A stretch of DNA of 64,000 bases from Fistulifera solaris (Eukaryota): assembly GCA_030295235.1 (NCBI GenBank), contig AP026172.1:1-64000 (forward strand). Reading direction: 5' to 3'. Below are positions 18,561 to 46,797 of this stretch, piece after piece; the stretch's first letter is position 1, and each line of letters opens with the position of its first letter. The notes below the pieces were generated by a model that was not told the origin of the DNA, did not search any database, and saw only the letters and a list, made by a program, of their open reading frames with translations. The translations under genes and the position numbers were made by a program.

Positions 18561-21500
18561 TTAAGAGTATGTCATTAGAGAAGAAAGATGGCCTAGGTGC
18601 TTCTCGATCATGCAATTCTGCAGCGTGCGGGTACAGTCATCGATTGTCAAATCACACGACGATAATCCCAGCAGGGCAAATTCCCAGCTAGCACCGCTGC
18701 GAAACAAACACCAACAGTAACCGTTCTGGTAGGAAATGTGTCGAAATCCGGAAACGTACATCGAACTATCTCTGTCCCATCAGCAGAATTGAGCATATTA
18801 AACGCAGCAGACAAAATGTGGTCCGCTTGCTCGCCAAGGTACGGGCCCAGTGAAAAGCATATGTAATGAACATCAGTTACCGCTCTGGGTAAAGCGACTT
18901 GGAACCGATCTTCGACGTATGCAACAGAGAGATCTTCCGATTGAGAATTTTGACGATGTACAACGTCAAGAAGATGAGTATCTTTGTCCATCAGAAGGGC
19001 CAAGGGCAGAACATTTTCACCGTTGGCTACCTTCCAATACAATCCAATGCTAAGGTTTTCTGGTAGTGGTGCAGCATAGTCCTCGATTCGAATACTTTCG
19101 CCTGAGCGCATCAATGCTGTTCTCTCAGCTCGTCTAGATATGCGGGTTGCTGATCCCTGGGCAATCACCTGTATTTCCGGTTGCATACTGCCGAATTCGC
19201 GAAATCCTTGATAACCTGTCGCCATGACTTCTAGGTCCCACGTGTTTCTGTTCTTTGCTCGAGAAATCCGTAAGAGCACGACAGACGTGTCCGAAGGTGT
19301 AAGTTGAGGAACAAATCGACCAACACCTTGACCAGTAATAGCGTCTTTACACCGTATTTCTAACGACTCTATGCCAGAAAAGAGTTGTCTCTTGCGGTCA
19401 TTACAAGGCAGAGTGTTCCAACGTTCATTGGGACGTTGTCCAAATCGATCACTACCGTATCGATTGTCGGTTGACCCGGTAACTCTAACCGTTCAGGAAA
19501 AACAATAGAGCGGTTGGGATTAGTTCGGTTAGCAAAGTATACTGATTCATCCCACAAAATGAATCCATTGTCTAGATCAGTGGCTACGAAACTGGTCTCC
19601 AAGCACGGTCCCGACCTCCATGATAGGTCTAGCGCTATCTTCGAATGTTGTCTCAGAACAAAGACATGACCTGGCATCAAAACAGGATAGAACTTCGCAG
19701 TCATCTGGACCTTCACCTCTATTTGACCCGTAGCTCCGGCGCAATAAAATTCTCTCGCTTGCTCGGAACGCGCTGCCACAGTGTACCAACATGATACCTC
19801 CTCTTTCGGCAATGTTAGCATGATGGCCCCCATAAACGTTTCTTTGCTGATTTGACGATCATAAATACGAAGTTCTAGTTTCTCGCTCCTCTGCACAAGC
19901 TCTTTTGCCATATCCCCGCCAATTTCACAAAAGATTTCGTTTTCTTTCCATACAGGATTGCTCGATCGACGAGCAGGGCCCGTTTTACCACAAGACTTGC
20001 CACCGAGATACAGTTCAACAAGAGGTTCCGCTGACTTCATTTTACCAAATATGTTGCGATCCAGTGACACTAAACCACGGGCCTGTGAGACGGTAACGGT
20101 CAAAGTGGCGGATGACATGATCGAAGTCATTGCTTGTCCATGATTGTGGAATGGTATAGCACTACTTTCTTGCGAGTGAAAACTCGAAAGAGAGGACTGA
20201 CTAGCTTGAAGCCCAAATGAAGGGCTTTCGAACGACAATTCGGTGCTCCTTATCGACTCATTGGCGTCTTTCTCAACCGGAATAGTATTTTCAAGCTTGT
20301 TATTTACGGGCACCCCGCTTGTACCAACTCATATGTAGCTGAAACACCAAAGGAATGCATAGATTGTGAGTGAGGTTTTGTATAATCGACATCGATAGTT
20401 CCTGTTCTTGGCCCAACATAATGTAGCGACGATGACAACTGGCCAGAGGTCCGCTTTGTTAGTGCCATTGCTGGCAAGACGGGGGTCGTACTTGTGATGA
20501 CCGACGCCGGATTTTCTTTTCATTTAAGATGAAGTTCTTTGCGTCCTTCGCGAGTGATTGTTCAGCACTGACATTATTTTCGGTTCCTTTTGATGCAAGT
20601 ATGCGGCGCGGATGCACAACAGCGGTAACTTTTCGACTCCACAGAGATCTTTTGGTTTTAGAATCAGCACTCGACCCACTTGATGAGTTATATGTATGAA
20701 CTTCACACCCATTGTCCGCTTCAGATGTTAAGGTGTTTCGTTCGGAAATATTTCGTACCGTAAAAGTAGCTCCCAGTTTGGCGCAAGCGACTGCATCGTC
20801 AGAGGATTTCACACGAGAAGGAGGGGCGCAATTTCTATTGCTTGAAGTTACTTTATCAGCTGACAAACTCCACTTGGGCGTTTTTCGACGACCTCTATTA
20901 TTTTCATGGATCGGTGCACCTCCAATCGGTAGTACAGGATTAACCGTATAGCTAGCCGCTGACGGAATGCGATGAGTTTGTACCTCGTCATGCTCTGTCT
21001 CGCTAGTGTCAGAATCGCAATCACCGGACTTTTCATCCCTTTTGTCATCATCACCTTCCATTACAACGGTCAATGCTGTTTCGATAGCTGCAGGAGTCTC
21101 ATTGCTTGATTTGGGAATTAGTTTTGCTTGAAATAGTTTCGATTTGATGCTCGGTGATTCAATGTGATGGCCTGGCGGATCACGAAGCCGGTAATCTTGC
21201 CTTCCAGATCCCCTATCGCGACGCCCGCCACGTCGTTTTCCTGAAGATGAGATTAAATCATCAGAAGAGTTCCATCGTTTTAACGGCCTTCTTTTACGAC
21301 TCCCATTGTCGAACCCTTCATGAAAAGACCAGTTTAACAACTCTGGATTAGCCCATTGTACTCTTCTTTTTGTCGTTGCGTATCACTGTCTCTGCATGTG
21401 GGCCAGAACTGATCGCCGACTTGAATGTCATTTCTTGGCCCGTACTCATTATTATTCTTGGCCGCGAAGTATTCGAAGAAGAGTGCTGCCGCACCACGCT

Positions 21501-21851
21501 CACAACTTCGGCGCTAACTGCTTCACCCACAAACGATGATTGGTGCTCATCATTATGGACCATCACTTCGCTTTCCTCGCCCTCTGTGACTGATTGAGGT
21601 TGCGAGGAAATGTTCTCCTCTGGAGATTCGTAATCGTTCTCAAAACTATCTCCAGATTCCGTCTCAGACTCATCAGAATATGATCTTCCGTAAGATTCAT
21701 AGTCACTGTCGTAGCTTTCTTCTTCAGATTCCGAGTAAGGACTGTCGTGTAAATGCGGCTTCGAGGTAGAAAAGCTTCCGTCAATACTCGTAGGCTCACT
21801 TTCAGAATTATCAGACACCATTGCGTTGTCTTTTTCTTGCTTTTCCGTCAT
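18561..21851 (-). CDS. C2-TerD-TerD protein, paralogue A, with acidic/Ser-rich N-terminal region (join of upstream ORFs uncertain)
   Basis: C2: TLTVTVSQARGLVSLDRN...GKTGPARRSSNPVW; TerD-like: LDLSW...ESVYFANRTNPNRSIV...IDLDNVP and SIGLYW...LLDVVHRQNSQSEDLSV; ORF pieces 21348-21851, 20459-21340, 19369-20313, 18647-19279, 18561-18761. Confidence 0.7.
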
Positions 21852-22623
21852 GTGTAGATGCTTTTGAAGCCTTGAGGCGACTTTCCGTTATCTCTTGATC
21901 AATCTAGGCGCGTGTTGGCTCCTTTACCTGCTCTGGTAAGCGTCGTCGAAGGCCATGTCGTTGACTGTGCTTTTCATCGATCATGCGCGTTTATTGAGTC
22001 TGTAAACGAAAACGTTGCGACCCGTTTGAAACAAACAATAAAGAGCATAGAAGCAGGCAGGCAAAGGGGCTACACCGTATGTGAGAGTGCAGTGTTCAGT
22101 AAGCGTGTGAAAAGAAACGTCTTGGGTAAGCTGTGTTTCTGGAGGACTATTTCAGGTCGATGACAAAAATTGGAGTGACCAAAGTCCTGATTTTTTTTTG
22201 TAAAATTATCCATGGATAAGTTTGGGCTGCTAGCTTTTCTACAGGAGTGACAAGTACCTTGAGGATTAACTTAAGAGAGTTTTGGCCGAAATGACTGTCC
22301 TACGGAAATGGTTAATGGTTATGGTCATAGTGTGTGATAGAGACATTGTAAAATCGTGAATGAACTTGAATGAGTCCGGAGCGAAGGTGGCAAACTTGAT
22401 TATTCTGCGCGCGTTTAAAAAGCTGAAGCAAAACTGGTACTTGATACTGGTACAATGAATAGCACCTTAGCAGTGAAAATTTACTCCGTATTAGATCAGA
22501 AACACACATATTACGGTTTATAACTTGATTATATCCCTTCGAATCTTTTCTATTCCCAAAATCAACGCATATCGATGGCCTAATTTAATATTTTACTAGC
22601 CAAGGTAACTTCCTCTCGCGATG

Positions 22624-25600
22624 CTACCAAATACTGGCAACTTTCAGTAGAAAATCTTCAGGAATCATGATGCTTTCTTTTGGAACAGGCACCAGAGGAG
22701 GTAGTTTACAAGGTAGTTCAACAGGGAGATCTCCGGGGGTAGGTATTCGACTTCGTTTCACCTCTTCTCGGAAAGCGTGGGCAACTTCGCAGCTATTCGT
22801 CGCTTCTGTCGGACGTCCAATCACGTAAAACGTCCAGGGAGAGTCTACCGAGGATCGAAGAAAACACCCTATCAGAGCCCCCGTCCAAGTGGTAGGTTCT
22901 GGTACGTCATAACTTATGGCCACATGGTTATCGCCGCCCAGAATACTACAGTGCAAGCTCAATAAAGGATCAGCTACTTGTCCATTGTACGGACCCAAGG
23001 AAAAACAAACGAACATAGTTCGACTGGAAACGCGAGTCAAGTCTACTTCGACTTTGTCGCGGTAGCTTCCGACCGGAATGTCATCATCGTCCTCGCCTTC
23101 CCCTCCGCAATGCAGAACCGAGTTATCGCGACTGTTGGGATTTTCAAACAAGACCTCGTCTAGTTTGTGAAAGTCCCTGTCAAGCAATGTTATCACACTG
23201 TCAAGCCGCACTCGATAGTGCGTGCCCCATTGTATATGCACAGATATCTCATTCGCCTCCAAGTAATCTTCAACTCTGATGCAACTTCCTGGCCTTAGCC
23301 ACGCCGATCGCCGAGCCGGCGGAACCTTATCAGGAATCGTATGTCGACAGAAGGCATGAAGCTGCGGTATTAAGCTGCCGCATTCTCTTATAACAGGATA
23401 ACCTTGACCAATCGGACACAATTCCCATGAATGATCCTTTCGGGTAATCCGAAACAAAACCATACTGGTGTCACCTCGCGACAATTCTGGAATGAATCGA
23501 CATACTCCGTCATCGGAATCAGAATTAATGCAACGTACTTTTAGAACACCCAACGCACTTAGATCATCGCGAGGCATACATAAAACCATGAATAGCGACA
23601 TAATGCTCTTATGGACCTTCTCCAGTTCCAGTTGCCAAATTTCTTCGCCATCTGGACGGCAGTAAATCTTCTGGTCCGATCTCAGCACACCCCACTTCAC
23701 TATGCTTTGATTTGGGTTTACTGCCCGAGAGAAGTAGATGCTTTGATCTGGAATTACTTGGCCGACTTCGTCCAACGCCACACACGCTGACTCTGCCAAT
23801 ACATTCTGATACCCCCAGGAGAAGCCGATGGTTAAATGATTTGGCAATTGCAGCAAACTACCTGGCACTACATCCGGAGCAGCCGTTGCGATAAAGTCAA
23901 CAGAAACAAGGAGCTCTCCCGAAGCCCCAGGGCTGAACAAATCGTGATGTCGAGAACGCTTCATAACACGATACCATGTAGCGGACTGACTTCCTACAAC
24001 AGGAACTTGAACACACCCCATGAACTCATCATTCCCTAACATATCCTGGTCGCAAAGTCTCAACTCGATTTTTTCCCCAGAGCGAAGTAAGGCTCGAGCT
24101 TGGTCACAGCCTAGTTTTACCTGAAACATGCCCCGCTGGAATACTGGATTTAGTGTTTTATACACGGTATCACTTCTTCCGACACATTTCCAGTTGTAAT
24201 TTTCGAAAACAAAGGCTTTGACAAAGGATCGGACGTCGTAGGTCGTCCCAGTAAGTCTTTGTCCAGCGCTACCAAGTTTCGACCCTGCAAAACATGTATT
24301 AACATTGTGGCCGATCCCATCGTTCGACCAATTACTTTGCGAGCCACCGGCGCAACACTTTCGGCTTCAGTAAGGTCATCTGATATGACTGGGGTGCTTC
24401 TCGGCAGCTTAGCGATGGCTGCTCCTAATGAGGCTCGTCGATTCATACGACGCATCGCACTCGAACTAGCACCATGCGTTGTCGAGCCACGACGACTCGC
24501 CATTGGGGCAACCTGCGTACTAGTTGTTGCTTTTGGATTTACAGCAGTCGTTGCATCTGAAGTAAAAGTTTTGCGACAGAGATTACTTGTATTGGTTGCG
24601 GACATTCGCCTGGCAGCCGCTGCCACAGATGCTCGCCGTCCACCACGTCCAGCATCTGTTTCCGAGGTTCGGGATTGTTTCATAATTTTATTCCAGTCCG
24701 AGGCGGCATTTTCTTTTGCCTCTTTTTCTTTTTTCTTTTCCAAAATGGCTAGCATTCCCAAACTACTGTCTGAATTAGATCGTACAAGCACCGGCATACC
24801 ATCCCCCGACTGCTTACGATTACTTGCCCCGTTTTCTCTTGTCTCCAACATATCCATGAGATTCTTTGAAGAATTTCGACGCCGCGCTTTTGTCTCATCG
24901 TTTGGTTCTCCTAATCTTGGCCGAGAAGAGGATCGCTTAGGTGGCGATCCCTCCCCAACACGAAGCCGTCTCTCTTCATCACTGTGAGCACGTCGAGGCC
25001 GAGGCCGTGACGCCGGACGTACTTCACGCGGTTCATCCTCACCTAGAGCATTAATTCGTGACCGCGACGAGCTACGTTTTCTTCCTTCCTCGTTTCCTGA
25101 TTCTTTTGTTTTAGGACGACGACGAGCACCATCTTCAGGCCGGGGCTGTTGATCGGAAGACTTTGACTTTTGCGAAGAATCTTTACTGACATTCGAAAAT
25201 GAACTATCCGCCGCATTTGTGGTGAAGAAGGCTTTTTCCGTGCTGATTTTGATGACGAAATTAGATTTTCTAAACCGACATCATCGGTACTTTCGGAGTG
25301 TGTCGATGCTGTCAGAGAAGACGAAGTTCCCTTGCTTGATCTTTTTTGAGGTTTCTTGGCCTCTTCAGCTGTTGCATTTCTCTCTGAACGTTTTGGCTTA
25401 GAGCTAGAGCTGATTGTTTTTCGATTTGTGGGTGATAAATCAGTTTTGTCCTCATCGATCGTCGTTGACACTGGTCGAGTTGCCTTGCTTCGCTTCTCCG
25501 GACTATTGTGCAAAGATGTATGCAGTTCTTTATTCACCCGCAGCTTTCCAGTGTTCTTCAATAAATGAGGTGATGAATTTGATCGCGATACTCGCCTCCG

Positions 25601-25711
25601 AGGAGCTTTATCTTCATTATCAGTCTCAGGTTTGTCTCGAGGAGGTCGAGGACTTGAACGCTTCATCGGAGATATCATTTCGGCAGACGTCGAATCGCTG
25701 GCTGTCTTCAT
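22624..25711 (-). CDS. C2-TerD-TerD protein, paralogue B (best-conserved copy)
   Basis: S/R/K-rich N-terminus; C2 with acidic loops LVALDKD...TSDP...KTLNPVF...DQDMLGNDEFMG; TerD-like LTIGFSW...SIYFSRAVNPNQSI and LDEVLFENPNSRDNSVLHCGGEGEDDD...VEVDLTRV; frameshifts join three ORFs. Confidence 0.8.
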
Positions 25712-26645: not shown

Positions 26646-28919
26646 CTAGTTTCCTGAAGATGTTTTCATAGCTTTGAGCAATCGGTCAGCAAAAATAACT
26701 CCATCTGAACTATCTATATAAGATTTTGCTGGAACGTCAAACGGTTCGATCGCAAATAGGGACGACGGCTTCGGTGATGGGTGGAGATTGTAAACATAGT
26801 CGCACAATGCGTGTAATGAATTGCATTTCGTTGGCGAACCAATTGCCCAAAAGTCCCAATACGACTCATCTGACCGATTGAGACATCCGACCAGGATATG
26901 TTTGTAGCCACAACTGGGATCAATAGGGCAGTCCGTAAAGCGAATGAGCTGAGCTTCCGTTGCTGGATCCCAAACATGACAGGAGAATTCTGCAGTAGTA
27001 ATGAACGCTATTGTTTGAACTCTCATACCCACGCGGTGCAATTCCAGTTCAATCATTTTACGAGTCATTGTGGCACTGCGATCTCGCGACTTCGTGTGAT
27101 GTTGATCAACAACGTCAACGCGCTGACCCCGTTCATCTAAGAACAATGCCATGACATCACCTTTCTTGCATCGAATGTCTATGACCAAACTGATCAGTCG
27201 TGGACAGTAATCAAGCAAATGAATACATGTACCTGGTTGCATCCACGCTGTCCGTGAAACACTAAAAGGATCTTGTATGATATCGCACGCACACATGTGC
27301 AGCATTGGTATCAAAGCCCCAAGATCCGATATGATTGGAAAAGATTTCATTAAAGCCATCATTTCAAATCCATTGGATTCCAAGGTGATTCGACCAAGCA
27401 AGGTGATTTGACTCGCTGGAACTTTCATCCGACCAAGACCTATTCGCTCTTCCAAACGGCAGGTCGCAGGTTCTGACGAGTCATTCACCACAACAAAAAG
27501 AGAGCCGCTACCGACTCCGGGAGATTCTTCAAATTGCACCGCAATGAAGTAGATTGGCGTTCGAGTGATCCACTCTTGTTTGTATGAGACAAATCGCTCA
27601 AGCATTCATCCCACTGGACCAGCCCATGCTTCTTCGTTATTGCAATAGCCGAGATAGGAAGACTACAATGCCAGTAGCACGAGGTAGGTATATTCTTTAA
27701 AACCGAACCAGCGTCTAAGTCATGCATTGTAGACCCCTCTAGTGTAATATATGCACAGACTTCAAATGGTGAATCTTCTATCGAGAAAAACCAAGATGAT
27801 TCTGTGGTGTGCATAGGCAATGGTATCGACCCAAGAAATCGCGGACCATTGTAAATACGGAGCTCAATAGGTTTGTAATCCTCTTCATTTTTCAAAAATC
27901 CTTAGCCTCATCACACGACAGCGACATCTGTAATGTCACAGGTGAAACCGTGGTTCCCGCTATCGCTACTATCTGTGATACTTTTTCTGTCCACTCGTTG
28001 TGGGATGTCAAAGCGTACGCTTGATACCACAATTGTGACTTCGTCTGCATCCATTTTGAAGGGAAGAGCGCTTGTTGAAGTTCAATAGTGATTTGCAGTC
28101 CAGCTAGGGATCGTACAACAGTGCGGCGACGGGAAGGCGACTTTTTTGGACTAGAGGAGGAACTACTTTTCGTGAACTCCGTTGAGCATCATCACTGCTG
28201 TTTTGATGGCAACTCTCTGCACTGCTGCGATGCTGTCGAATCGACTGCTCTCCATGACTACCTTGAATGGATTGTGGTGTTTTGATTCTCTCCGACTCTG
28301 TACCAGCACTTTGGGATCTTTTAAGGATAGGCGGGGAAACAATTTGCAATTGTGCCGATGAATGCCGAGTCACCGGACGAGGTGTGACCGGAGTAGATGG
28401 ACCGGACGTCGATAGCGTGGGGACTTGGGCAACAACATCACCAACACGAGGCATACTAAGACGACGACGGGGACCGCCCGTGGATCGAATGGTACGACGA
28501 GAAAAGGGTGAGTCAGCAAGACTGCCGCGTCGGGGCGTGTGGTTACGCCCTGAATCAAAGCCACTCGCATTTCCTGTCGAGGAACGACGGTGCATCGATC
28601 GACGTGGCGACGAGCTGCGCCGCGGACTGACTCGTTCAGTCGCAAAAGTCGAATCGTGCGAGCCTCGGGTTGTACGTTGATGTCGCGAAATAGACGAACT
28701 CCTTCTTTGTGAACGTCTGCTCTCTGCTAAATCGCTTCTTTCCATGTCACTGCTACTTTTAGACGATATTGACCTCGATCGCGCAGCTCGTGACCTTTCT
28801 CTCCCAGGCTCAAATACTTCACCAGGCAGCCCGTCATCTTGGCACTCAATCGAAGTACTTCTCGGCTTTTTATCGGATTGATTCGAGCACAAAGCCGAAG
28901 GGCTTTCTTTGGCTGCCAT
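26646..28919 (-). CDS. C2-TerD-TerD protein, paralogue C (shortened and diverged)
   Basis: S/R-rich N-terminus; C2 remnant IELRIYNGPRFLGSIPLP; ISDLGALIP linker, RTAWMQPGTCIHLLDY, VDVVDQHHTKSRDRS...IELELHRV align with paralogue B. Confidence 0.65.
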
Positions 28920-29470
28920 GTATTCTCTAGCTGATCATCTTTCACCATATCGGTCGACACCATCTCTTCAACCTCAATTCAGAAGCGCTTTGCCAGCAAA
29001 GAAAAACTGTTGCAAGAAAAATTATTGGTGATGCCAATAGAAAGAAAAGCCGAGAACAAGATTGATGTAAAACCAAACATCGACAAAGACTCTCTTCTTT
29101 CTTTCACAGGTCACCACAACTCGAAACCATTTAAAATTCAAATCTTAATAATGTCTCATCACGTCTCGAAGCATTATCAAATGCTCTACTCTCACGATCG
29201 CGAGACTGCGCAACCAAGGAACACCGCAGAAGCACAGTGGCTAGAAAAGTACTATTAATTTATCTTCTGAAGGCCGCGAGCATAAGGCCCACACCGTAGC
29301 CGATGGCAAACGTTAGTCGTGTCGTACTCGTGAAATGTTAGGCCGTTCATCTACACAAATCCGACGTGTCTAAAGAGTTTAGCCAAGAGTCGATTAAGTC
29401 GAGAAGTTTCTTTAGAATAGTAGGTTATTAACAATTACTAGCTTTAATATCACAAGGAGGGTTTAGTTCG

Positions 29471-30282
29471 CTACTTAAAGTAGCTATCGTCGAGGCGTTG
29501 AAGGCCAATCAAAATGTACTTCTTCTGCGCTTTTTGCCGTAACAAGGGAGGCTTCTCCCGGCTTAATTGTTGCATGGATTGCGCGTGACGGGCCAGACGT
29601 CGAGCGGCGGGTGATTCAAGTGTTTCTGAGACTTGTGGGGATGCCGAACCTATTTTCGTCATGCTCAGACGGCGCCGTGGAGGTAATTCGGTTCCACTCG
29701 TGCGACGACGCTCAACAGAAGCTGTGCGTCTACGCCGGGGTTCCACGGAAGAAGAACGTCGAGCTCTTCGTGGTGTTTCTGAAGCAACTTCTGCTGCTGA
29801 TGGAGAAAGAACGAGAAATTCTTGCTCTAGTTTGACAGCCGAGGACGTTCTCCGTGGCCGACGACGGGGACTGCGTTTCGAAGATTCATTTGATTCGTTT
29901 GTTTCATTGGAGTGATTCGTGCATGTCGACATTCTCCGCCTCGGACGTCTAGGGATTGTTTTTCCTCTTGTTGATAAGGAGAAACGAGTGGTGAGCAACT
30001 TTGTATTTGCTTGAGTTTTTCTTTCGTGAGAGTATGCACATCTCGTTTCGGCGTCTGAAAAGAGCTTTTATCCACGCCTGTACTCCATTCTCCTGAAGAA
30101 TCAAAGGGAAAGTCATCTTCAAACGCACTAACAGAATCAGAATGCACTGTCGACGGAGTAGAAACAAAGAAGTCGTCGGCTTTTGATCGAGGTGTCGAGG
30201 GCGTAACAGACCCTCGTTTCTCGCGAGGTGTTGTTACAGGGCGCGGCCTGCTGCGACGACAGCGCGGTGTAAGTGGATCCAT
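29471..30282 (-). CDS. Stand-alone Ser/Arg-rich low-complexity protein
   Basis: MDPLTPRCRR start plus frameshifted continuation with RRMS, RRTS, RRSS, RRLS motifs. Confidence 0.55.
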
Positions 30283-31050: not shown

Positions 31051-31131
31051 GGTAAGGACGTTAAAATTCTGTCTCCAGTACAAGATTCTACGTAGCCTCC
31101 ACGACGAGGCAGAATTTTAACCCCGTTTCCC
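31051..31131 (-). mobile_element. About 80-bp MITE-like hairpin element, copy 2 (reverse orientation)
   Basis: Reverse complement of the 6431 and 49703 copies with a few substitutions. Confidence 0.8.
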
Positions 31132-34538: not shown

Positions 34539-35231
34539 ATGCGACCAGAGAGCTCTTACGTAGACGATTGGTGTATTTTTGAGGATGACGAGCCTAGCTG
34601 GAATGACGATTCGACGAGTTTTGGAATCGACTTTGTGGTTGCCGCCGATCCAGCTGCTAGTCCGCGTCGTCGAGTTCGTCGAGCATCTCTTGCTTCAAGC
34701 TTATCACATACACCGGATGTTTCTGATTCGGCGATAGGAGGAGGCAGAAGCGTCAAATCGGAGCAGGTGAGACCGTCAAAAACGTCTTCAAGGGCAACAC
34801 GTCGACTGTCCCTTCGTGGAAGTTCTACGCAGCCCTCTCGTCCAGCGCCTCCTCGATCACCCGTCAAGAAAAACGCACATCGCCGCAGTTCAATATCACA
34901 CACAAACGACAAACTATGCGAAAACATGGCATCATGCAGTCTCCTTGATCTCATGAAAGTCAATCACATCAGTGTCGACACGGCTTCCTCCAGTAGCGGC
35001 TCGGCCACGCCTCCTCCTCCCAAAAACCAGCAATCACAGTCCCCGACGACGAACCGTAGAAGAATACAACAGTGCTCAGAGCAGTCCCCGCCGCTCTTCC
35101 CCTCGACGCACTCGTCGGCTCGTTTCTATGCCGAAAGTGGGATCCGCCAATCCTGGATCGCAATCCAACGAGAATGCGTGTACGCGTCGCATGGCTCGTC
35201 GCATGTCCTTACAAGCATAGAGAATGCATAA
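34539..35231 (+). CDS. Stand-alone Ser/Arg-rich low-complexity protein
   Basis: ATG after an AC-rich leader; acidic DDWCIFEDD start; RRAS, RRLS, RRSS motifs; probable frameshift into RRLVSMPKVGS tail. Confidence 0.55.
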   Translation: MRPESSYVDDWCIFEDDEPSWNDDSTSFGIDFVVAADPAASPRRRVRRASLASSLSHTPDVSDSAIGGGRSVKSEQVRPSKTSSRATRRLSLRGSSTQPSRPAPPRSPVKKNAHRRSSISHTNDKLCENMASCSLLDLMKVNHISVDTASSSSGSATPPPPKNQQSQSPTTNRRRIQQCSEQSPPLFPSTHSSARFYAESGIRQSWIAIQRECVYASHGSSHVLTSIENA

Positions 35232-35776
35232 ATGTAAATAATTATAATTTTTAGGAGGATAGATTAAGAGACGCTAAGAGAGACGCCATGGTGATCTCGG
35301 TCTCATCGCTTGGTTCATCGACTCCTCGTCCCATTTTTTTATTGGGGTTAATTTCGCCTGCGCGCATCAGTATTACAAAGCCAGGAAAAGATCCTGTCGC
35401 TTGTCAACTTAGTACTAAAAAAATCGAATTCGTGACTCTGAGAAAGCGACACATTCAAAGCTTCAAAGTGTACCAGGTAGCGAACCCAATAATGGCCTTC
35501 GCAATTCGCAATCACGCTCAACCGCACACACACAACACACCTCTCTCATCATTCATCATTTCCAGGTACTCCGTACCAGTATCATTCATTGTCAAAGCCA
35601 CCTTCGAGGCAAACGTCAACTACTAACACTACAAAGTATATTATTTGCTGCTGATTGCAATTGAAACTAATTCCAGTTCAAGGGTGTGAGTTGTAACAGA
35701 TCGTGTAACGAAAAATTTGAACGCCAACAATCATCGTCTTCCTCACACACAACAACATGACACATTTGGACGAATG

Positions 35777-36982
35777 GATGTCACCAAAAAGAAGCTTTAC
35801 CTCGAAGAATCGTTTACTTCATCAACACAGGCGTCGGACGACTGGGAGGTCTTTCCATCATGGCATGAAACGATTCTCGTCTCTACAATACCAGAATCTC
35901 CAGTCAGTCGTCGTTCGTCGCTCGGATGTAATAATGTGCACAGCGTCAGTTCCTTCAGTTCGCAGCGACTTCTCTCTAAGCCTGTTGAGTCGCCTCGGAC
36001 GACACGTTCCAGTCGGCAGCCGCCTTCCTCGCGAACACCTCGACGTGTCTCGGCATCAACTAGTTCCTGTCCTCATTTGAAAGAAAAATCCCTCGATTCC
36101 ACCGCTTCCCCGATTTCTGTCGTATCGAGTCGCAACGTGTCACCCTCTCGCCGCCGACGACCTTCCGCAGTATCCACGTCCCAGATGTCGGCAGGAACGA
36201 CCGATACAATGGAAGCATCCCGTCATCTCCCCCGAAGCGAACAGCGTAGTAATGTTGACAGTGTTCGACATTCATTGCAACCCAAGCCAATATCGCAGCG
36301 ACAAGCCCAAGCGAACTCGGAATCTAGATCCAAACAAAAGAAACTCGCAACAATCGTAGTGAAGAAAAACGATTTGTCACCCACGGTAGCGGATAGAAAA
36401 GAGTCTCGCCGGTCCTCTTATGAGAGGCGTCCATCAAACAGAAAGAAAGAAAACGTCCAATCACTCAAGGATACACCACGACGGAAACCGGAAAAGCCCG
36501 AGGAGTCACCGCAAATAGCACACAAGAACGTATCGAGAGAAGCAACGAAAACAAGGCCAAATTCGAGAAGAGCTTCCATGACAGAGGGGGTCCCAAACGC
36601 TGCAGAGAAATTCGTTTCGAAACGAACAAGCGATCATCGTGGCATTAGCCGCCGTTCTGCGTCACCGCGTCGTCGACGTGAGTCGATGGCTTCCAAAGCA
36701 TCCCTGCATCGTTCTAGCAGTCGATCGAAATCACGCAGCAAGGCACGTCCTATGGATGTCTCGGGTGATTCTTCCGCGAGGAACAGCAAAAGTCCCCTGT
36801 GCACATCACGGCATCGCTTGTCGACAGGATTCGGCACTGACAATCAAGTTTGCAAACTCGTTGTGCGACAACTTCCTCATCAAGGCTCTCTTCGAAAAGG
36901 ATGCATCGAGATTTTGGAGAAGTCGGATCATTCAGTGCTTTCCCCCTCGTCCGTTTCCCAACGTCGCTATTCCGTGTTTTGA
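35777..36982 (+). CDS. Stand-alone Ser/Arg-rich low-complexity protein
   Basis: About 400-aa open frame; DDWEVFPSW near the start; many RRxS motifs. Confidence 0.6.
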   Translation, partial: DVTKKKLYLEESFTSSTQASDDWEVFPSWHETILVSTIPESPVSRRSSLGCNNVHSVSSFSSQRLLSKPVESPRTTRSSRQPPSSRTPRRVSASTSSCPHLKEKSLDSTASPISVVSSRNVSPSRRRRPSAVSTSQMSAGTTDTMEASRHLPRSEQRSNVDSVRHSLQPKPISQRQAQANSESRSKQKKLATIVVKKNDLSPTVADRKESRRSSYERRPSNRKKENVQSLKDTPRRKPEKPEESPQIAHKNVSREATKTRPNSRRASMTEGVPNAAEKFVSKRTSDHRGISRRSASPRRRRESMASKASLHRSSSRSKSRSKARPMDVSGDSSARNSKSPLCTSRHRLSTGFGTDNQVCKLVVRQLPHQGSLRKGCIEILEKSDHSVLSPSSVSQRRYSVF

Positions 36983-37387
36983 ACAAAGATAGAAGAAACG
37001 CATATATTCGTCTGAGGCGTCAGGAACAATGGAGACAATTTGAAATGAGCAAATGACGGTGAATGGATTCTAAGCTTTCGAATGCAATGAGGATGAGATC
37101 TCCGCGCCCCATGCTTAGCCAGTAGTACTGTCCAAGTGTGAATTCTGCAAATCATTCACGAGTTTATTGTTTTACTGTTTTTTTATAGTGTACCCGGTAC
37201 AGAGCCTAAAAAAGAGCCGTTTCAACTGTGATTGCTTCGATAAATGGATCGTTCCTTTTTTCCCGCTTTTTACTTGCAACAACATGCAACGCGATCGTCG
37301 CATCAATCTCTCGATTGCGAGAGCGGCGGCTCCGGCATTATCTCTCTCTCCCTTTGCGGTCTGCAATCCTTACATTTCAACTCAATC

Positions 37388-39266
37388 ATGAAGAATACAC
37401 AACAAGACGATGTCTCCTCGTCGGCCGGATCCAGCGTCGACGAAGACGTGTTTGCGGGAAACGATTGGTCCCCAGAATCATTGCATTCTTCAACGACGAC
37501 AACGAAGCCTCAGCAGCAACAGAATCAGCGACACAGCAAACAAAATGCAAAGACGACCGACTCATCCTTGTCTTCGAAATCTCGCAAGGTTACACGAACT
37601 CATTCGCAACTTCGTAATCTGGTCGTGAAATTGCTTTCTCCCGTTTTACGTTCGTCGAACGCAACACAAAGTTATCCCGCCGGTCCCGACAGGCCTCTGA
37701 AACGCACTGTGAAGGAAACGCAACAACCTCTGGAGAAGAAAGATAAAAATCGTCGACCTTGTAGCGGAGATTCAGCACCGCGACGTTCTGCGCCTCCCCA
37801 GAGTCGTCAACTTGCGCTTGCTGAAGAAAAGAAACAGTCACGGCGCGACTTGACGGCAAAGCAGCAGCACAAATCGATTGGTCGACTTTCGATTAGCAAC
37901 ACACCTCATCCCGAAGAAAATGTAGATACGAAACGAAAATCGATAGCAAATGGGACATCGGAGGGGGAAGAATACGGGTCGTCCTCGTACGTCATTTGTG
38001 ACGCAAGCCAGTGTCAAAAGAATGGGAACGGTACCTGCATTAAAGACTGTTTCGAAAAAGGACGTACCTCGATCCGATGAGATGATGAAACAATTCAAGC
38101 AATCGCCGAAACAAACTTCGAGACGTATAGAGCAGGGACTCGCCGCAGCAACTTCTATTCGACGCAGCCCTTCACCCAACAAAAAGCAAGCTTCGGATCG
38201 TAGACTCACCTTTGCCAAGACTCCGTCTCGTCGAACGATCAAAGAAGGACAACACGAGCCAGGTCAATCACGTCGAAAATTGGTAGAAGGCAGTGCTGCT
38301 CGGAGTGAACGCAACCTTATTCGCACGATGCCTTCGGCTGCACAGATCCCAACCCCGCCAATAACCGATACAGTAGATAATCGAGCAATACGGAAAGGAT
38401 TAGACGAAAGAACGAGTATCGCGAATAAATCTCGAAAGGAACTGATTCAGATGGCATCGCAACGACGCTTTTCGTCTTCCGGTACGGAAGATGTGTCGCC
38501 TCGGGAGCCGTCTCGGAGAGCCTTGACGAAAAGCCCCATTGCAAAAGATCGTGGAGCAAGGAAAGCGGTGCCATCCGTCAGCGATAAGCAACCGGATATT
38601 GAATGGAAGCCCGAAATCGAAGAGAGTTCCGGCCAAACAGGGTCTCCCGCACGCTCGAATGAATTGAAAATTGTTCAGGGAAGCGTCGTATCGCCCGATT
38701 CTCCCCCTCGTCAGGCACAACGGGTTTCCATGAGAACGATTGGTGCATCCTCTCTTTCGTTGCGCCAGATTCCGCAGATAATAGAGGAGAGTCTCTCCAG
38801 CGCGAGCCGTAGCAAAAGCAAAAAAGATCTTTCCCGCCGTGTTTTGCTGAGCTCGACGGGAAAATCTGAAGCCAGTTTCAAGTCGCAGCGTTCGGTGACC
38901 AAGAAGGGAAAAGATAGCAACCAAGTTGCTCGTCGAGACGTCGCTCAGCCACCGCGCGGCGCTCTCAAGAGAACTGACCCAGTGAAGAAGGAATCGACAC
39001 CGAAGCTGCTTCGCACAGAAGGTACGGCTATGTCGAGATCTTCTTCGAAAAAGAACGTAACAAATCGTACTGCTCGGCGCAGGTCTATCGACCTAAAGAC
39101 TAAATCTCCTCGGCGTCGTTCTGTCTCACCAACGGAACCTACCGAAAGCTCAGACTTTGACTACAGCCAGACAAAAATATACCCCTATACCGCCTCACCT
39201 ACAAGAATGATATCTTTCGCTCCGAACGTGTCCTCGAGAAGGAATATGAACTGGATCCAATTTTGA
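37388..39266 (+). CDS. Stand-alone Ser/Arg/Lys-rich low-complexity protein
   Basis: ORFs 37244-38080 and 37950-39266 joined by a frameshift; acidic start then basic RRxS-rich body. Confidence 0.55.
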
Positions 39267-39576: not shown

Positions 39577-42173
39577 ATGAAATTCTTTCTCGAGCTCCTT
39601 CTTGCCCATAATACAGTTAATAACATGGGAGAAGTCGACATTTCCGGTAGTCCCAGTGCAAAGGCAACAGTTCGGTTAGGGACCGCCATAACGACACGAT
39701 CTTCTCCGAATGTATTGATCGACGATGCAACGCTCGACACGATATTCTGTCCAGTTGATGGTCTTTCGATTGCTTCCACTCTTGACGATGTATTCTGCTC
39801 AGCTTTAACGGATGATTCGATCGTCGATTCGCCCACGCAGCGACGGCGGAAGCAGCTTGGCGAAGTAAAAGCCCTCAGCAACGAGATCGACAATCTCTTG
39901 TTAAGAAAGACAATAATAGACTCGTTTCACCGAGAAGTGCAAGCCGGCGTTCTTCGAAAAACCTTTCAAAGCAACGCAAAACAGAGTTGAAGAGCAGCCC
40001 GCGGTATCCAAGCGCGTCGAAACAGTTAATCATCGAACAGGAGTCGTTAAAGTCGCCTCATACTCAAGATGAAATGATTAAGAGAAATTTACCTTTGAGA
40101 AGTGTTTCAAAGTCGCGAATACAGAATCTCGAAACAAATGACGAAGACCTAGGGAAAACAACGAAAAGACGAAGTTTCGTTTTACAAAGAAAAGGTGCCA
40201 GAGAGCTACAGAACGATATACTCGTCAACAACTCAGACCCAAAACGAAGTTCGTCACGAAAGTCAGCAAGTAGGAATCTTGAAATGCGGATCGAACGGTC
40301 GGTTAGTTCACATCGACGAGGGAGTTCCGAACCACGGATAAGGGATCTGAGGCAACAAAATAAAGATGACTTGGTCGAAGGTGGATGTCGGTCGTCACGA
40401 ACACGGAGTTTAGAAAGGAAGGTCGAACAGTTACGAAGCGTTCATAAGAGAGGTGATGCTGACCCTGCTGAGAAACTAAACAAGGACAAAAGTGAAGATA
40501 GGCCAATGACCCCCAAACGCTTCAAAAACATTCCCGGGCGAAGCAGCTCAGCGTCGGGGCTAGAGAGATTAACTGGGCAAACAAGAAGAGCGCTTAACAA
40601 ACGAAGTACCTCAGATTCTCGAATCTCACAGATCGATCATCACCACGAAATTTATGAAGTTAAGGAGGACGTAAAGAAGAAAGTGTCGTCTCAGACCATC
40701 CGTTCGATACGGCGGAAAGAACGCTTGCAAAGTCCGTCTGGACGCTCGCGGCAATCACTGAAGAGAAGGAATTCCAATTCACGGATTGAAATTACCGAGG
40801 ACAAACTTTTAAAGGGCATTAAAGAGTCTTCAGAGCGCGCAGCTAGATCCCCAAATCGAAATAGATTAAAAGCGAAAGTTGACAATGGAGTTACAAGATC
40901 CGAACCTACAAGAAGCTCACACAGACGAAGAACTTCAAAATCTCCTGTAAAAGATTCCTCTTTACAACCAAAGAACGACGCCAAAGAAAAATCGCAACGG
41001 ACACGCGGCTCACATTGTTCAAAAAGTTTCCATGGACATATCAAAGAATCAATAAAACAAGAAAGTGAGCGACGGAGCATTTCACAGGATAAAAGGGAAA
41101 AGTTAGAACGCCGCGGCTCAAAGTTAAGGATTGTTCATCACGACGGTACGGACAAAGGTGACAGTTCAAGGAGTTCTGACGCGCGAGACAGCTCGATGTC
41201 TACTAACCAAAATTTGAAGAGAGAAGGGCGCAAAGTGTCAACTAAAGACACAGTGGTCCGTTCCGAATCTTCGCCGCACACACCTTCATCGGACGTAAAT
41301 TATGTCAGCCCGAAGACATGGACTGTAAACAATTTCCAAACGGATAAAGTTTACCTAATACGGCCCTTTTGGCGAAAAAACAATCCAACAAAAGGGCGCA
41401 ACACCAATTTTGAGTTAGTGGCGTCACAAGCACTACAGCATCCCCCACAGACTTTTGAGGATGAACCAGAGAATCATAACCAACATCACGTTACAGAGTC
41501 TACCATGAAAAGGACGTCTTTTCCCATGCTGTACTCAAGCTTGCAACCGCTTTCCGGGGAAATTGTTGGGGACGCGAAACTCTTACAAAATGAGTTGGTT
41601 GTGACGCGAGAGTATTTCCCCACTTCCTTGGAAGCATTTGAAGCAGCAATAACGCCGAGAAAAGAGGAAAAATTGGCACTTCTACAAACTGACGAAATTG
41701 ATGAGCATCACACGCCTGCGTCTCCACGTAGGCAAATCAAGAGTTTAAGTCCGACGAGATTTTTCAAGAAGGCATCTAAACGATTGAGTAGCGCGGTGGC
41801 GCAATTATCTGGACGCGTGTTCCCAGCAGGTACAAGCGATTCGTCGAGTCGAAAAGAAACATACCAAGAGGCGTCTGTCGCTCAGAACAAGGTAGATGTA
41901 GTCCGACAGGAAGCTCCTCGTGAGTCTGCTGTCCAACCTAAAAAATCTTATGGAAATCTTGCTCAAGACATGTACGGCAATGCCAAAGAAGACAGCGCTA
42001 AGGAGGACCCGATCACGTCGAAAGAGGGTGAAGGAAGAACCAACGCAAAGCAATCAACACTTTCACGGACCAGGGCCCGCAGTAGATCGGCGGGTCGTTT
42101 GCAGCTAGAAAATGATAATGCAAGGGCTTCCATTAAACGGACGAACAACGGCAAAAGTGTGCCCCCGCATTAG
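39577..42173 (+). CDS. Large Ser/Arg/Lys-rich low-complexity protein
   Basis: 728-aa open frame 39987-42173, probably joined to upstream MKFFLELLL...VLIDDA ORF by a frameshift. Confidence 0.6.
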
Positions 42174-43883
42174 CTTCAAAATCCTTCCGTGACCTCGACT
42201 TATAGTGTCGAGCTTCTTTTTAGATGACATATGGGTCTGATGCAGGATCAAACCTTACATTACTAGAAGGCGGCCACCATATTCTGGAAGTCAGCTGGTG
42301 CGCTGCTCTTTGTTTTCCTCCTTCACTGATTAAGAAGAAGAATGTAAAATGATTGATTATAAACAAAAACACGTGGAGCATGGTGTTTTGAAAATTTGTT
42401 TATGGGACTTGCCACAGAGCGATTTTGTTCTAAAGGTTACAAAAAAGGCTACCGTCGCACGGGCTTGATCTGTTTTATTTATTTTACATAAGGCTCTCAT
42501 CACGAAAACTCATTAGCTATAAACATCTCCCAACTATGATTTTAAAACAGATGTTTAGAAAAGCCAACGAAATAAACTTGTTGAATGAATCGATTGTGCC
42601 GTGGACTCTCTCGCCATGATTCTGCTCTTTCATTATCAAACCGGCTTCCTACATGAAATGTAAGCGTCTGCATCGCACAGTTTGTGAGAGCGGTCAGCAA
42701 CCTGTTCCATTGCGATTGTGTGAAACAAGCCATCACATCCGTTCCCAACTCGAAATGTTTTAGGTGCGGGTAACCTGGCATCCACTTCAGGAGAGCCGAC
42801 GTAACCGAAATCATTAATGTTTTGTTTCCTTGTAAAATCTAATACGTCTGACAATACTGCTGCTGGGTGTAAAGCAACAACGAACCCGCCACTAATTCGA
42901 AGAGAGATCACATGACAATCTGATAGCGTTTTGCATGAATCATGTACGGAACCGGTAAATTGTTTGAATGAAAAGTGCAGATTCGATCGAATGAATCAGT
43001 CGACAACAATGTGTGTTAACGAAGTAAAGAAGTCGTTTGAAGTATGTCATCGAAACTTAAAGATGTGTTCGATTCGTAGATATACCAAAAAGTGTTGTTT
43101 GTTGTGCCAAGCTGTTTAGGAAAATGCTTTCAGCCTGGCGATTGGGAAAAGCCGTACCAGTACGTCTATGGAATACAAAGACGGTCGTAGACCTGGCCCA
43201 GATTGAGAACGACTCTGTTGATTGCTTTCCCGCTGTGGACTGTCTGATAGCGAGAGAGTCTTTTCATCTACACCATCTTTTTGACCTCGTTGCTCAACGG
43301 TCGCTCCTTTCTTTGGGTTCTTTTCTTTTTTTTCTTTTGACGACTCCTCTAAAGGAGTATGTGTAATATACTCCTTTGCATATACTCCTTTGACTCCTCT
43401 GTCCTCTGTGATTGTTGTGGTTTGTGGTCGAAAATCGACTGTCGCAGCTTTAGGTCTGTTATGTCACTTATAAGATCCTTTCTAATGGCAGCTCGGGACT
43501 GGACGCAACGGCTTTTCTCTTTTTCAAACCCGTACCAGGTACTTTGTGTATAAACGAAAAAGGTCATCCGCTTCTCCGGTTCTCCACAAATTTCGGCGAA
43601 CGCGACGAGAAAACAACTTTTCTGGGACAATTCGAGAACAGAAGTTGACAGTTGACCATAAAGTCCGTGTCACGAGACAAGAGCTGGATGGCTGCTTTCG
43701 GTCTTCTGTCTTTCCGTCGTTATTATCTCACCCAATGCATACTGCAACCGGAGTGTCAGATTTTTACGTTTTCATCGGAACACACAGTAAAGTAAGTAGT
43801 TTTCGTGTCGACACAGCAATAAAAACGAAAAAAGAAGGATGTTACTAAGCTTTTAAGATGGAATGGCAATAATCACTACAGCA

Positions 43884-46797
43884 ATGTCTTCTTCGAACGG
43901 ATCAAAAATGTGAAGCAAGAGGAGCAGATCCGCCGGGAAGATCGAAAAAAGCCAATCATAACAGCGGAAATACTGACGAAGCTTCTCCTGTTGAATTACC
44001 AAACAATGAGTTTTTCTCAGAGCGGCGTTCCAAGAGTCGAGGACGCTCCTTGGGGCGATCTACCAGTAGCAGGGGATTGCATAGAGCAACTAGCAGTCGC
44101 TCCCTTGCCAAATCTCAGCGTAGCGAGTCTCTGGCAGCGTCTAAGGATAAACATAGGAGTGAAGGTAACGAAAGATCAAAGAGCTTAGGAAGAGGAGAAA
44201 GAGGAAGATCGAAGAGCCGAGGAAAAAAGAAGGCCGCGACAGAAGACGGCAGATCAAAAAGTCGAAGACGGAAATCAGAACGCGGCGAAAGGTCTAAAAG
44301 CCGCGGAAGATTACAGCAGAAAGGGTTTCAAGAAACGATAACGTCCCCTCATCCTGACGGAAATGGAGATCAGCTACCAAAAAGAGATCGCACTCAGAAG
44401 ATAGAGGTGTCATCATCTAAAGCGGCACAGTCACCGCGTCCATCGATTTTAGAAAAGGCTCCGAGAACCCAGTCTGGTTCGAATCGTAGCACATCTCCAT
44501 CCATACAAAAACTCGATGCGCCTTTTATTCCACCAATTCGAAATGTTGAGCCAATTCCAACGTTATCAAAAGAAGCTGTTAACAAGTTACCGGCCGAAGC
44601 AAGCATTTCCTCTAAACCAGCTGCCGTGAATCGAGGTGTAAGGCGGAGTACCTCGGCACATGCCGACATGAAGACGGCAATAAGGTCCCCAAAGCGATCT
44701 CAGTCGACCGATGAGATCAAGATATCTCAAAGAAAAAAAGCTGCCAACGCCCCCTTTTTTCTGAAAGGGAACTCACCCCAGATGTACAAGTCAAAACGTT
44801 GCCAAGACAACGTCTTAGCAATTCAAATGCTTTTGACAGAGTAAGTCTTCTGAAAGACTTTCAGTCGACGGATGATAATCCTTTTCACCAAAGCAAGCGA
44901 TCGATAAGGCTGAGTATAATACCGTCACATATACCCAATCCACAAAAGTTGCAGTGAAGAGTTATTCTGATCTAACGAAGTCCAGTTATCAAACGCGACA
45001 TTCGCCGAAGACCAATACGCAAACCTTGGTGGCATCCAGCGTCGTTGTTTGTAACTGTTTCGGAAGGTCGTATGTTGGTCCCTATGCAGCGCAACATTCT
45101 TGGTTTCAAAACTTACTCTCATCCTTACATTGAGGTATACGTTGACGGGAAACTGCTTGGTAAAACAAAACATGCTTACCGAACCGTCAATCCTGCATGG
45201 AAGAGCGGCAACTCATTCTCTACTCATTATGACGCTATAACTGCCAAAGAAAAGGCTTCTCGCAGCGAAAGAATAGAATTACATGTTCATCATCTTGGAA
45301 AGGGCGGTGTTGCTGCATTTATGGGAGCTGTTCGCATTCCCCTCTTAACACCACGGTCGAGCAGAGTGGTACCCTGTGCAACAACGTTCTGCTCTGGATA
45401 GTGGATTGTATTGCATTAATGCCTCGGGAGAGCTGCAAGTGCAAGTGAATTTTACTGCGCATTCTTATCCAGAATTGAAGCCTGGTCACGAGTTACTGAT
45501 CTCTGGGAATGCTGAGATATCACTCAATCTATCTTGGTCCAGTGATTCTTCCCTTGAAACGAGCTGCGTCGCCCTTGACGGAAAGAATGGACCGCGTACT
45601 TTGGAAAGAATCGCGTTTACTTTGCAAATCGGATTAATATGAGTAAATCTGTTGCACGACCGGAGGTGCAAGATCACAAGGATATGGCGACACGAGATTC
45701 GTTGTTATTTGATTTTGGAATGGTGCCGGGAGAATGTTGCAGCTTTTTTTGTTGTTTTGACGATTCGCGACAAATCATTCACGCTGTCTGACTTACAATC
45801 CTTTCAGCTTTCTGTCAGGAATGAGTCGACACGCTGGAGGAATAGGGCACATATCGGTCAATTTAAGCTTCTAAGGAAACATCAGCTATTTTGTTGCGCA
45901 TCACTCGTTCGACTCTGGGGACAAGCAGCACGTGGAAAATTGCAACAATAATCAAAGGATATAAAGTATTTCGCGAGTTTGGAAGCCTTTTACCCCAACT
46001 TCAAGAGCTCTCGGGTGATATTCTGCCAAATATAGGAACCCCTACTGGACGAACAGCATTAATGCGATGTGGCGATAGCCTTCAACTTTTGGATTACGTA
46101 CCGGATCATCTACCAAGCAAATTGGTGACTGGCTTCTTCTGGAAGGTCAAAAACAGGGAACCATTAAAAGTCGCAGTATCTCTCCCTCGACGAAGAGTTG
46201 CGGAGGTAGACGCAATTCATAGGACACAACCAGGGTCACTCACGAGCCAAGGTGTTCTATACTCCGGAGGAAACGAAGAATCACGAGAAGTTCGAGGTAG
46301 CCTTTGCCCAACTATCATCAGATGTACATTACATCTGCTTTGTGTTAGGTCCTTGTAGCCGTCAGAAAGTTGATGATATCGAAAACGTGGCTTGTCATAT
46401 TGTAAACTCCGGCTTTGGGGGCTGAGTTAGCGCGATGTACATTGTCAAGCTTCGAAAGCGTTCCCACAAAATCAATCGGCCTAGGATGCTTCTACAAGAC
46501 GGAAAAGGATGGAGCTTTACCATTCTCGGTTTATGTTCCACTGATACTACCTTTGCGGGACGTCTGAGCGAGCTTCGCAATCACATATTCGAAAATCCCC
46601 TGGAACCCGCCGTCTCACTACCTCACCCTCGACTTCTAAAAAGCGTTATGCCGCCAGCCATTCCACTGCCACCGCCAAGACAACTAGTGTTTTCGGACAT
46701 CGTGGAAGCACATCACAAATTCAACCACGGACAAAATGTATCTACCTCTACTCTACTTACAGTACGCAGACAATCAGAGAAACAATATAAGATCTAG
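43884..46797 (+). pseudogene. C2-TerD-TerD paralogue E, heavily disrupted
   Basis: RSKSR-rich N-terminus; C2 LFVTVSEGRMLVPMQRNILG...SHPYIEVYVDGKLLGKTKHAYRTVNPAW; LNLSW...LETSCVALD; VFREFGSLLP, RTALMRCGDSLQLLDY; many frameshifts and stops. Confidence 0.65.

Follow-up and report, generated by a model that had tools for sequence, protein, structure and literature searches.

A subtelomeric array of five diverged C2-TerD-TerD paralogues in the diatom Fistulifera solaris

The first 64,000 nucleotides of contig AP026172.1 (assembly GCA_030295235.1) of Fistulifera solaris, an allodiploid diatom, are referred to here as the window. They contain five loci, A to E, located 18.6–46.8 kb from a telomere of the TTAGGG type. 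Locus tags assign this chromosome end to chromosome '6L'. The loci have a common layout, in which a disordered Ser/Arg-rich N-terminus is followed by a C2 domain and two TerD domains with a conserved linker. They form an array of paralogues and not a multi-component Ter system. With reasonable, though far from complete, confidence we regard the array as a tandem duplication that produced five intact but strongly diverged genes of a eukaryote-wide C2-TerD-TerD family, and their products as probable membrane-docked scaffolds. The array represents a diverged form, specific to this lineage, of a eukaryotic family that is known but uncharacterised, rather than a new kind of system.

Paralogy was established in two ways. 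A tblastn search of the window with the open reading frames (ORFs) of B and D returned exactly five loci (25–31% identity, E-values from 1e-5 to 1e-36). A hidden Markov model (HMM) of the family, applied with the --max option to all six-frame ORFs of the window, detected the same five and no sixth C2-TerD locus. Positions 6–578 of the HMM are covered across the pieces of each locus. The motifs of the linker between the TerD domains, which had been quoted in an earlier description made from the DNA letters alone (the sequence-only reading), are present and aligned in all five loci. The minus strand encodes A, B and C, the plus strand D and E. The outer limits that the sequence-only reading had given, 18561 and 46797, coincide with the stop codons of A and E.

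Domain identity was assessed against the gathering scores of Pfam, which are 25.3 bits for TerD (PF02342) and 22 bits for C2 (PF00168). Locus A (18561..21887, minus strand) has its C2-TerD-TerD core at 18564–20360. This core corresponds to the deposited protein GAX17156.1 with 600 amino acids (aa), and a Ser/Asp/Arg-rich N-terminal ORF extends upstream of it to ~21.85 kb. The C2 profile matches the window ORF with an E-value of 1.2e-10 (42 bits) and GAX17156.1 with 3.9e-10; the TerD profile matches GAX17156.1 with 1.6e-14 (54.3 bits). Locus D (31585..33961, plus strand) is open from 31486 with the first ATG at 31585, and the deposited protein GAX17153.1 (636 aa) starts at 32050. Its C2 and TerD matches have E-values of 4.9e-8 (33.6 bits) and 1.3e-6 (28.4 bits), respectively. 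In locus E (43873..46797, plus strand) the start of the deposited protein GAX17149.1 (572 aa) falls within the C2 domain, at 45072. C2 is matched with 1.5e-9 (38.5 bits) on the window ORF and with 1e-6 on GAX17149.1, and TerD is matched on GAX17149.1 with 1e-16 (61.4 bits).

Locus B (22624..25711, minus strand, ~1026 aa) is better conserved than any other copy and alone has the full acidic set of C2 Ca2+ ligands. It is delineated by Pfam, alignment with a homeologue, AlphaFold models and fold matches of TerD and C2. Its approximate layout comprises the disordered N-terminus (24330–25711), the C2 domain (23884–24329), TerD1 (23356–23883), a linker of one helix and strands (~23266–23380), TerD2 (~22798–23265) and C-terminal helices that extend to 22627. 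TerD is matched in two stretches (8e-15, 55.2 bits) and C2 with 4e-7 (30.6 bits). Locus C (26646..28934, minus strand), on the other hand, is the most degenerate copy; its C2 domain is shortened and its TerD loops are deleted. The Pfam TerD score is below the threshold (0.069, 13 bits) and there is no C2 match. Solely the family HMM ties C to the family (149 and 38 bits for its pieces), and its 800-aa relative P0006 likewise has no Pfam match.

The predicted structure of B agrees with these assignments. For the core of B (532 aa, alignment of 39 family rows) AlphaFold yielded a model with a predicted local distance difference test score (pLDDT) of 84.6 and a predicted template modelling score (pTM) of 0.78. 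Judged by the pTM, the three domains are fixed relative to one another in this model. Residues 1–114 match the C2 domains of dysferlin, myoferlin, otoferlin and E-Syt2 (Z 7.2–8.9, r.m.s. deviation 2.3–3.1 for 88–101 residues). Residues 114–289, which represent TerD1, match 9a6r_B, 3ibz, 2qng, 2qz7 and 2kxt with Z of 20.9, 16.8, 15.6, 15.3 and 13.8, respectively. TerD2 was modelled alone with a pLDDT of 89.4, and chains of the same five TerD-family entries (9a6r, 3ibz, 2qng, 2qz7 and 2kxt) take the first six places among its Foldseek matches (E-values from 3e-11 to 2e-6). For locus B, the models thus support a TerD β-sandwich in both C-terminal domains. The sequence-only reading had proposed paralogous loci with a C2 domain and a double TerD. 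It holds on both counts, by profile for A, B, D and E and by predicted fold for B. Neither of the two outcomes that it had named as speaking against it, C-terminal repeats without a TerD match by profile or structure and loci that do not align, was found.

An exhaustive protein search with an HMM built from the five loci gave 751 matches with E-values of at most 1e-3, 186 of at most 1e-10 and 55 of at most 1e-30. A word-indexed protein search with the ORF of B had returned no match, owing to a limit of the index, and it was the exhaustive search that recovered the family. Pfam analysis of 40 HMM matches identified both C2 and TerD in 34, TerD only in four and neither in two, the C-like P0006 and P0033. 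Named diatom members belong to Stauroneis, Amphora, Chaetoceros, Thalassiosira and Seminavis ('Tellurium resistance protein TerZ'), and members outside the diatoms to the metamonad Anaeramoeba ignava ('cAMP-binding protein') and the green alga Cymbomonas. A search with the Amphora protein resulted in 340 matches with E-values of at most 1e-10. Of the 120 listed, 118 carry both Pfam domains, and these 120 include Odontella, Skeletonema and many environmental proteins named 'TerZ' or 'stress response protein SCP2'. The C2-TerD-TerD layout is thus old, widespread and already present in databases under automatic names. The architecture had been put forward as undescribed, which does not hold. The names 'TerZ', 'SCP2' and 'cAMP-binding protein' are misleading. 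The sequence-only reading knew of no functional description, and in a search of the accessible literature, with supplements outside its range, no study of the family was found; apparently, the family has never been studied.

In the family consensus, C2 has the ligand pattern D ... SDPYV ... D.D..S.DD. Each TerD domain contains the motif DLD and the loop HSGD...G...GDDE, and the strongly conserved linker reads RDFGSLIPE ... ER.A.MRKG..IR..DY. Canonical members are, for example, Seminavis robusta CAB9502985.1, Chaetoceros debilis A0A7S3PVS5, Anaeramoeba ignava KAJ5069265.1 and Cymbomonas KAK3281888.1. The array copies have the same order of C2, TerD, linker, TerD and C-terminal helices, and the HMM matches over the full length. 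They differ from canonical members in several respects. Canonical proteins comprise about 560–660 aa with the C2 domain right at the start, whereas the array copies carry N-terminal extensions of ~300–500 aa. The TerD profile matches canonical members with 1e-40 to 1e-74 in two stretches but the array copies with only 28–61 bits (13 bits in C). Finally, canonical members retain a median of 96% of 26 conserved acidic columns and the array copies 35–58%.

The reading frames of the loci are interrupted in the window. These frameshifts, which the sequence-only reading had also mentioned, turned out to be artefacts of the assembly. The exhaustive HMM search identified the loci A, D and E as the F. 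solaris GenBank entries GAX17156.1, GAX17153.1 and GAX17149.1. All three come from a single contig of 57,073 bp and bear the label 'hypothetical protein' or 'C2 domain-containing protein'. GAX17156.1 maps to A in four blocks of 100% identity with hops of one nucleotide at 18710, 19378 and 20313. GAX17153.1 is identical to D except for one residue, with a 1-nt hop at 33732–33734. The match of GAX17149.1 to E consists of 11 blocks, each 100% identical, with about ten single-base hops between them within 1.7 kb. Sequencing data were available from four public runs as contigs of unrecorded kind. Compared to the window, run contigs have an extra C after 18710 (A), an extra A after 24222 (the frame change of B) and one base fewer at 33732 (D); these differences are located exactly at the hop positions. 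At position 21367 a base is missing in one run and another run agrees with the window. Because the deposited proteins map in identical blocks with 1-nt hops and run contigs differ at these sites, the frame changes of the array are assembly indels, neither introns nor pseudogene lesions. Introns as a source of the frame changes are ruled out by the contiguous mapping of the deposited proteins.

Altogether, 33 indel differences between run contigs and the window were counted in 20 kb, some of which derive from a diverged subgenome. In the deepest run, 157 of 294 contigs are only 90–95% like the window, which fits a second, diverged subgenome. The window assembly contains many single-base indels, and an ORF-based reading of the F. 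solaris genome shows false frameshifts.

The loci B and C were compared with uninterrupted relatives. The homeologue of B, FisN_6Hh458 (P0173, 1026 aa), aligns with 25711–22627 at 85–91% identity, and B is therefore a gene of ~1026 aa. In-frame stop codons at ~27.9 kb made C a candidate pseudogene. This was ruled out by P0006, which aligns through this region in another frame; it covers 28553–26658 at 55–69% identity with frame hops near 27890 and at 27490–27590. All five genes are judged to be intact.

The deposited models of A and E begin inside or just before the C2 domain, and the model of D begins 465 bases below the first ATG of its ORF. Relatives of 1111, 1033, 800 and 1461 aa, in contrast, hold a disordered N-terminus and the domains in one ORF. 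Therefore, the true array proteins most likely include the N-terminus as well, and this end is probably missing from the deposited models of A, D and E. For E, the missing part would be the Arg/Ser/Lys-rich ORF at 43873–44844 (plus strand), upstream of the start of GAX17149.1. The N-terminal ORFs of the array are rich in Ser, Arg and Lys; residues 1–465 of the B homeologue contain 17% S, 12% R and 9% K. Several R-R/K-x-S/T sites are present in the N-termini of all copies, nine of them in the B homeologue. No hydrophobic leader was found at the N-terminus in the translations of the array copies.

An open Ser/Arg/Lys-rich ORF of 785 aa is located between D and E (39649..42173, plus strand). It shares homology with the first 846 aa of P0033, a relative of 1461 aa with C2-TerD-TerD at residues 986–1401; tblastn aligns residues 5–88 at 65% and 103–846 at 38% identity. 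The family HMM detected no C2-TerD part behind this ORF at 42.2–43.8 kb. Probably, the ORF goes back to a sixth family member, of which it would be a remnant or a derivative without the domains.

This remnant is among the findings that would be expected if the array consisted of decaying duplicates, i.e. pseudogenes or near-neutral relics of a subtelomeric burst of duplication. The lack of a recognisable C2 and TerD profile signal in C points in the same direction, as does the retention of just 36–62% of conserved columns of all kinds. However, A, D and E are uninterrupted deposited proteins once single-base assembly indels are allowed for, and B and C align end to end with the uninterrupted relatives of 1026 and 800 aa. 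Furthermore, the structural core and the linker are conserved and the models of B show the fold with high confidence. We therefore consider decay highly improbable.

The phylogeny of 43 family members, obtained by a quick search with a warning on long rows, unites the F. solaris copies in one clade (support of 99 in the SH-like approximate likelihood-ratio test, SH-aLRT) with their partners P0003 (B), P0006 (C), P0005 (A) and P0033, and with P0007. The clade is nested among pennate diatoms and adjoins Amphora. Its end branches reach 2.4 changes per site compared to a median of 0.76, in accordance with the fast divergence claimed earlier. The relatives are 80–85% (B-like), 55–69% (C-like) and 44–67% (A-like) identical to the array copies. 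Environmental loci of at least 6 kb with a canonical member contain one copy in 15 of 15 cases; the search was seeded with ten canonical members, and several of the 15 loci repeat the same gene. The tandem expansion in F. solaris is unusual for the C2-TerD-TerD family.

The array is subtelomeric, 18.5 kb from the chromosome end, because the telomere repeat (AACCCT)x16 occupies positions 1..96 (Tandem Repeats Finder, 98% matches; no strand is assigned, and the other strand reads as the TTAGGG type). This had been stated by the sequence-only reading and is confirmed. Such a position, together with the tandem expansion against single copies in all environmental loci and the very long branches, could indicate a rapidly diversifying cluster for stress, defence or recognition, a subtelomeric family of the contingency type in which biotic conflict drives the copies apart. 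The unequal conservation of the copies, with relatives far closer to B than to A, would be compatible with this, and bacterial TerD proteins belong to stress and phage-resistance operons. Against it, Pfam identified no effector, sensor or other conflict-type domain within or beside the array genes (29 of the 33 window ORFs of at least 200 aa, counted from stop to stop, were scanned). The copies lack signal peptides and transmembrane segments and are therefore not surface molecules. They are also old and stable instead of variable, as each has a partner elsewhere at about 55–91% identity. A cluster shaped by conflict is thus very unlikely, and a role in defence or recognition is pure speculation.

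The acidic residues of the domains differ markedly between canonical and array proteins. The array copies retain 9–15 of 24–26 family-conserved acidic columns, compared to a median of 96% in canonical rows. The ten loop columns of TerD (DLD, GD...GDDE) have four acidic residues left in A, four in the B lineage, four in D, three in E and one in the C-like relative. A, C and E have lost the TerD2 loop by deletion. The Ca2+ role of the TerD loops is taken from the title of PDB entry 2kxt and from the general background on TerD proteins. Five acidic ligand columns are present in loops 1 and 3 of C2; all five are kept in the B lineage, three in A, two in D, one in the C-like relative and none in E. 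The value for B is taken from the 83%-identical relative P0003, as the window row of B covers three of the five columns and the other two were assigned by eye. The Ca2+-loop acidic residues that are typical of TerD are mostly lost in the array, and on this point the sequence-only reading, which had referred to TerD domains as Ca2+-binding in bacteria, is not supported.

The proteins could nevertheless have remained Ca2+ sensors or buffers at membranes by means of remaining or relocated acidic residues, in which case the duplication merely partitioned expression or location. This would be in line with the conserved fold, linker and domain order, with the complete C2 ligand set and the acidic run in TerD2 of B, and with the part of the TerD2 loop that persists in D. 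It is hard to reconcile with only one to four acidic residues in ten loop columns, with the loss of the TerD2 loop from three copies and with a C2 domain in E that has none of its five ligands. We regard retained Ca2+ sensing as unlikely.

We therefore return to diverged, membrane-docked scaffolds. The canonical protein, which is abundant in diatoms, is a single-copy protein of ~600 aa with three putative Ca2+-binding β-sandwich modules, one C2 domain that would dock on acidic membranes and two TerD domains joined by the conserved linker. In the Fistulifera lineage its gene would have been duplicated into the subtelomeric array, and the copies would have evolved several-fold faster. The fold of three domains and the linker persist in them, whereas about half of the conserved acidic positions have gone, most TerD Ca2+-loop residues among these. 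Long, basic, Ser/Arg-rich disordered N-termini would have been gained. The lack of a hydrophobic N-terminal stretch suggests that the proteins are cytosolic, without a signal peptide. Attachment to membranes would occur through the C2 domain, presumably Ca2+-dependent in B and Ca2+-independent or weak in the other copies. A rigid double-TerD body with a probably phosphorylated, disordered arm would be suited to a scaffold or adaptor and not to a Ca2+ sensor.

Several points weigh against this reading. The loss of acidic residues is not selective, since only 28–48 of 72–78 non-acidic conserved columns are kept, and this fits a general relaxation or alteration of constraint equally well as a specific loss of Ca2+ binding. 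Acidic runs are kept in TerD2 of B (EGEDDDD) and of D (NNDTGDFTDE), so that, to judge from the residues, some metal binding may persist in these copies. The single array clade could be inflated by long-branch attraction in a quick tree with long rows. In addition, F. solaris may also keep a canonical copy; its name is absent among the 120 of 340 matches listed for the Amphora query.

A more far-reaching version would turn an ancient Ca2+ sensor into subtelomeric, fast-diversifying and Ca2+-independent membrane adaptors with phospho-regulated arms, which perhaps replaced the canonical gene and whose divergence was driven by conflict or recognition involving viruses, bacteria or mating partners. 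Such an adaptor array would be a eukaryotic counterpart of the conflict-linked bacterial Ter proteins. We consider this version a long shot.

The sequence-only reading had also proposed a Ter-type system. In the 29 scanned ORFs Pfam identified no other ter-family domain (TerA, TerB, TerC or others). Of the four ORFs outside the scan, three are located in a subtelomeric satellite and one is antisense to a retroelement. A 'Ter system' is not supported, because the scan of these 29 ORFs showed no other ter-family gene nearby. The bacterial TerD, TerZ and SCP2 proteins of known structure (2kxt, Klebsiella TerD; 3ibz and 2qz7, Streptomyces; 2qng; 9a6r_B, SCP2) have the β-sandwich in common with both C-terminal domains of the B model, and these domains also match the Pfam TerD profile. 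Bacterial ter proteins, however, are single-domain proteins of ~190 aa encoded in multi-gene ter operons, whereas the array proteins are eukaryotic, have two TerD domains fused behind C2 with degenerate Ca2+ loops, and lack ter neighbours.

The best multi-domain structural match of the B model is chain A of 7JTK (Chlamydomonas radial spoke 1), with a Foldseek E-value of 3.5e-17 over 501 columns and a TMq of 0.51. The VIA comparison (Z 17.6) aligns 343 residues across both TerD domains. Sequence searches detected no similarity to chain A. Like B, chain A contains a tandem TerD-like body. This match shows that such a body can be a structural part of a eukaryotic complex. We know of no radial spokes in pennate diatoms, and a literature search for a link between radial spokes and TerD retrieved nothing relevant. 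Copines combine two C2 domains with a von Willebrand A domain. They likewise place a C2 membrane anchor at the N-terminus and a globular interaction module behind it. The resemblance to the array proteins is one of analogy only, as the C-terminal domain is unrelated. Chain B of 7JTK is described in an excerpt of PMC13090124 as an 801-residue two-domain radial spoke protein.

TerD domains have been noted in other eukaryotic cytoplasmic proteins, which can be likened to the array proteins by description. In a table of PMC3188802, Dictyostelium CABP1 TerD/capA/B is listed among candidates for horizontal transfer, and a passage of PMC10953051 refers to FAZ28 and FAZ30 of Trypanosoma brucei as eukaryotic TerD proteins. 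Unlike in the array, a fused C2 domain is not mentioned for CABP1 in the former excerpt or for FAZ28 and FAZ30 in the latter. CABP1-type cAMP-binding proteins are linked to the family only via the automatic name of the Anaeramoeba homologue and the table entry in PMC3188802.

Ca2+ signalling is central to the way diatoms sense nutrients, osmotic shock and grazers, and only a small number of Ca2+ effectors have been identified. With three putative Ca2+ modules, conservation throughout the diatoms and occurrence in distant protists, the canonical C2-TerD-TerD protein is an obvious but unstudied effector candidate. The array represents a natural comparison set with the same fold and linker and a graded loss of Ca2+ ligands. 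F. solaris is transformable and used in biotechnology. The main value of the array is that it points to the canonical protein as a candidate Ca2+ effector and provides variants with lost ligands.

Further Arg/Ser-rich ORFs without a Pfam match are present between the array genes. Two overlapping ORFs are located between C and D (29471..30366, minus strand; identified by their translations) and have no significant similarity to other disordered ORFs. Four Ser/Arg-rich disordered ORFs follow at 34536..39266 (plus strand); similarity to one another or to the N-termini of A–E was not found at E-values of at most 1e-3.

According to Pfam, the neighbours of the array comprise a ubiquitin-activating enzyme E1, a chromo/RING protein, a GH5 enzyme with CBM6 modules, an MBL-fold protein and a copia-type retroelement. 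A scan for tRNA genes found none. A degenerate ACTTGC-based satellite (470–1048) adjoins the telomere repeat, and an interstitial telomere-like repeat (CCTAAC x4.5) is located at 2304–2330, 2.3 kb inside the chromosome end. The E1 gene (4261–6062, minus strand; ThiF 2e-48, E1_4HB and E1_FCCH) is only 4–6 kb from the telomere and is split between two frames, as are the array genes. The GH5 enzyme is encoded by an ORF of 688 aa (52978–55044, plus strand) with two CBM6 modules (3e-42) and a GH5 cellulase domain (6e-25). This architecture looks bacterial for a diatom, and horizontal acquisition is possible. The Ty1/copia-type retroelement (58708–60720 and onward, plus strand) has a gag zinc knuckle, a pre-integrase and an integrase core and coincides with a strong GC skew at 58–64 kb.

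An element of ~75 bp with terminal inverted repeats (GTTAAAATTCTG ... CAGAATTTTAAC) is located at 31055–31130, where the array switches strand. Contigs often break at both of its ends. In one run its depth is 859 compared to ~20 in adjacent bins, an excess of ~40-fold. Most likely, the element is a high-copy repeat similar to a miniature inverted-repeat transposable element (MITE).

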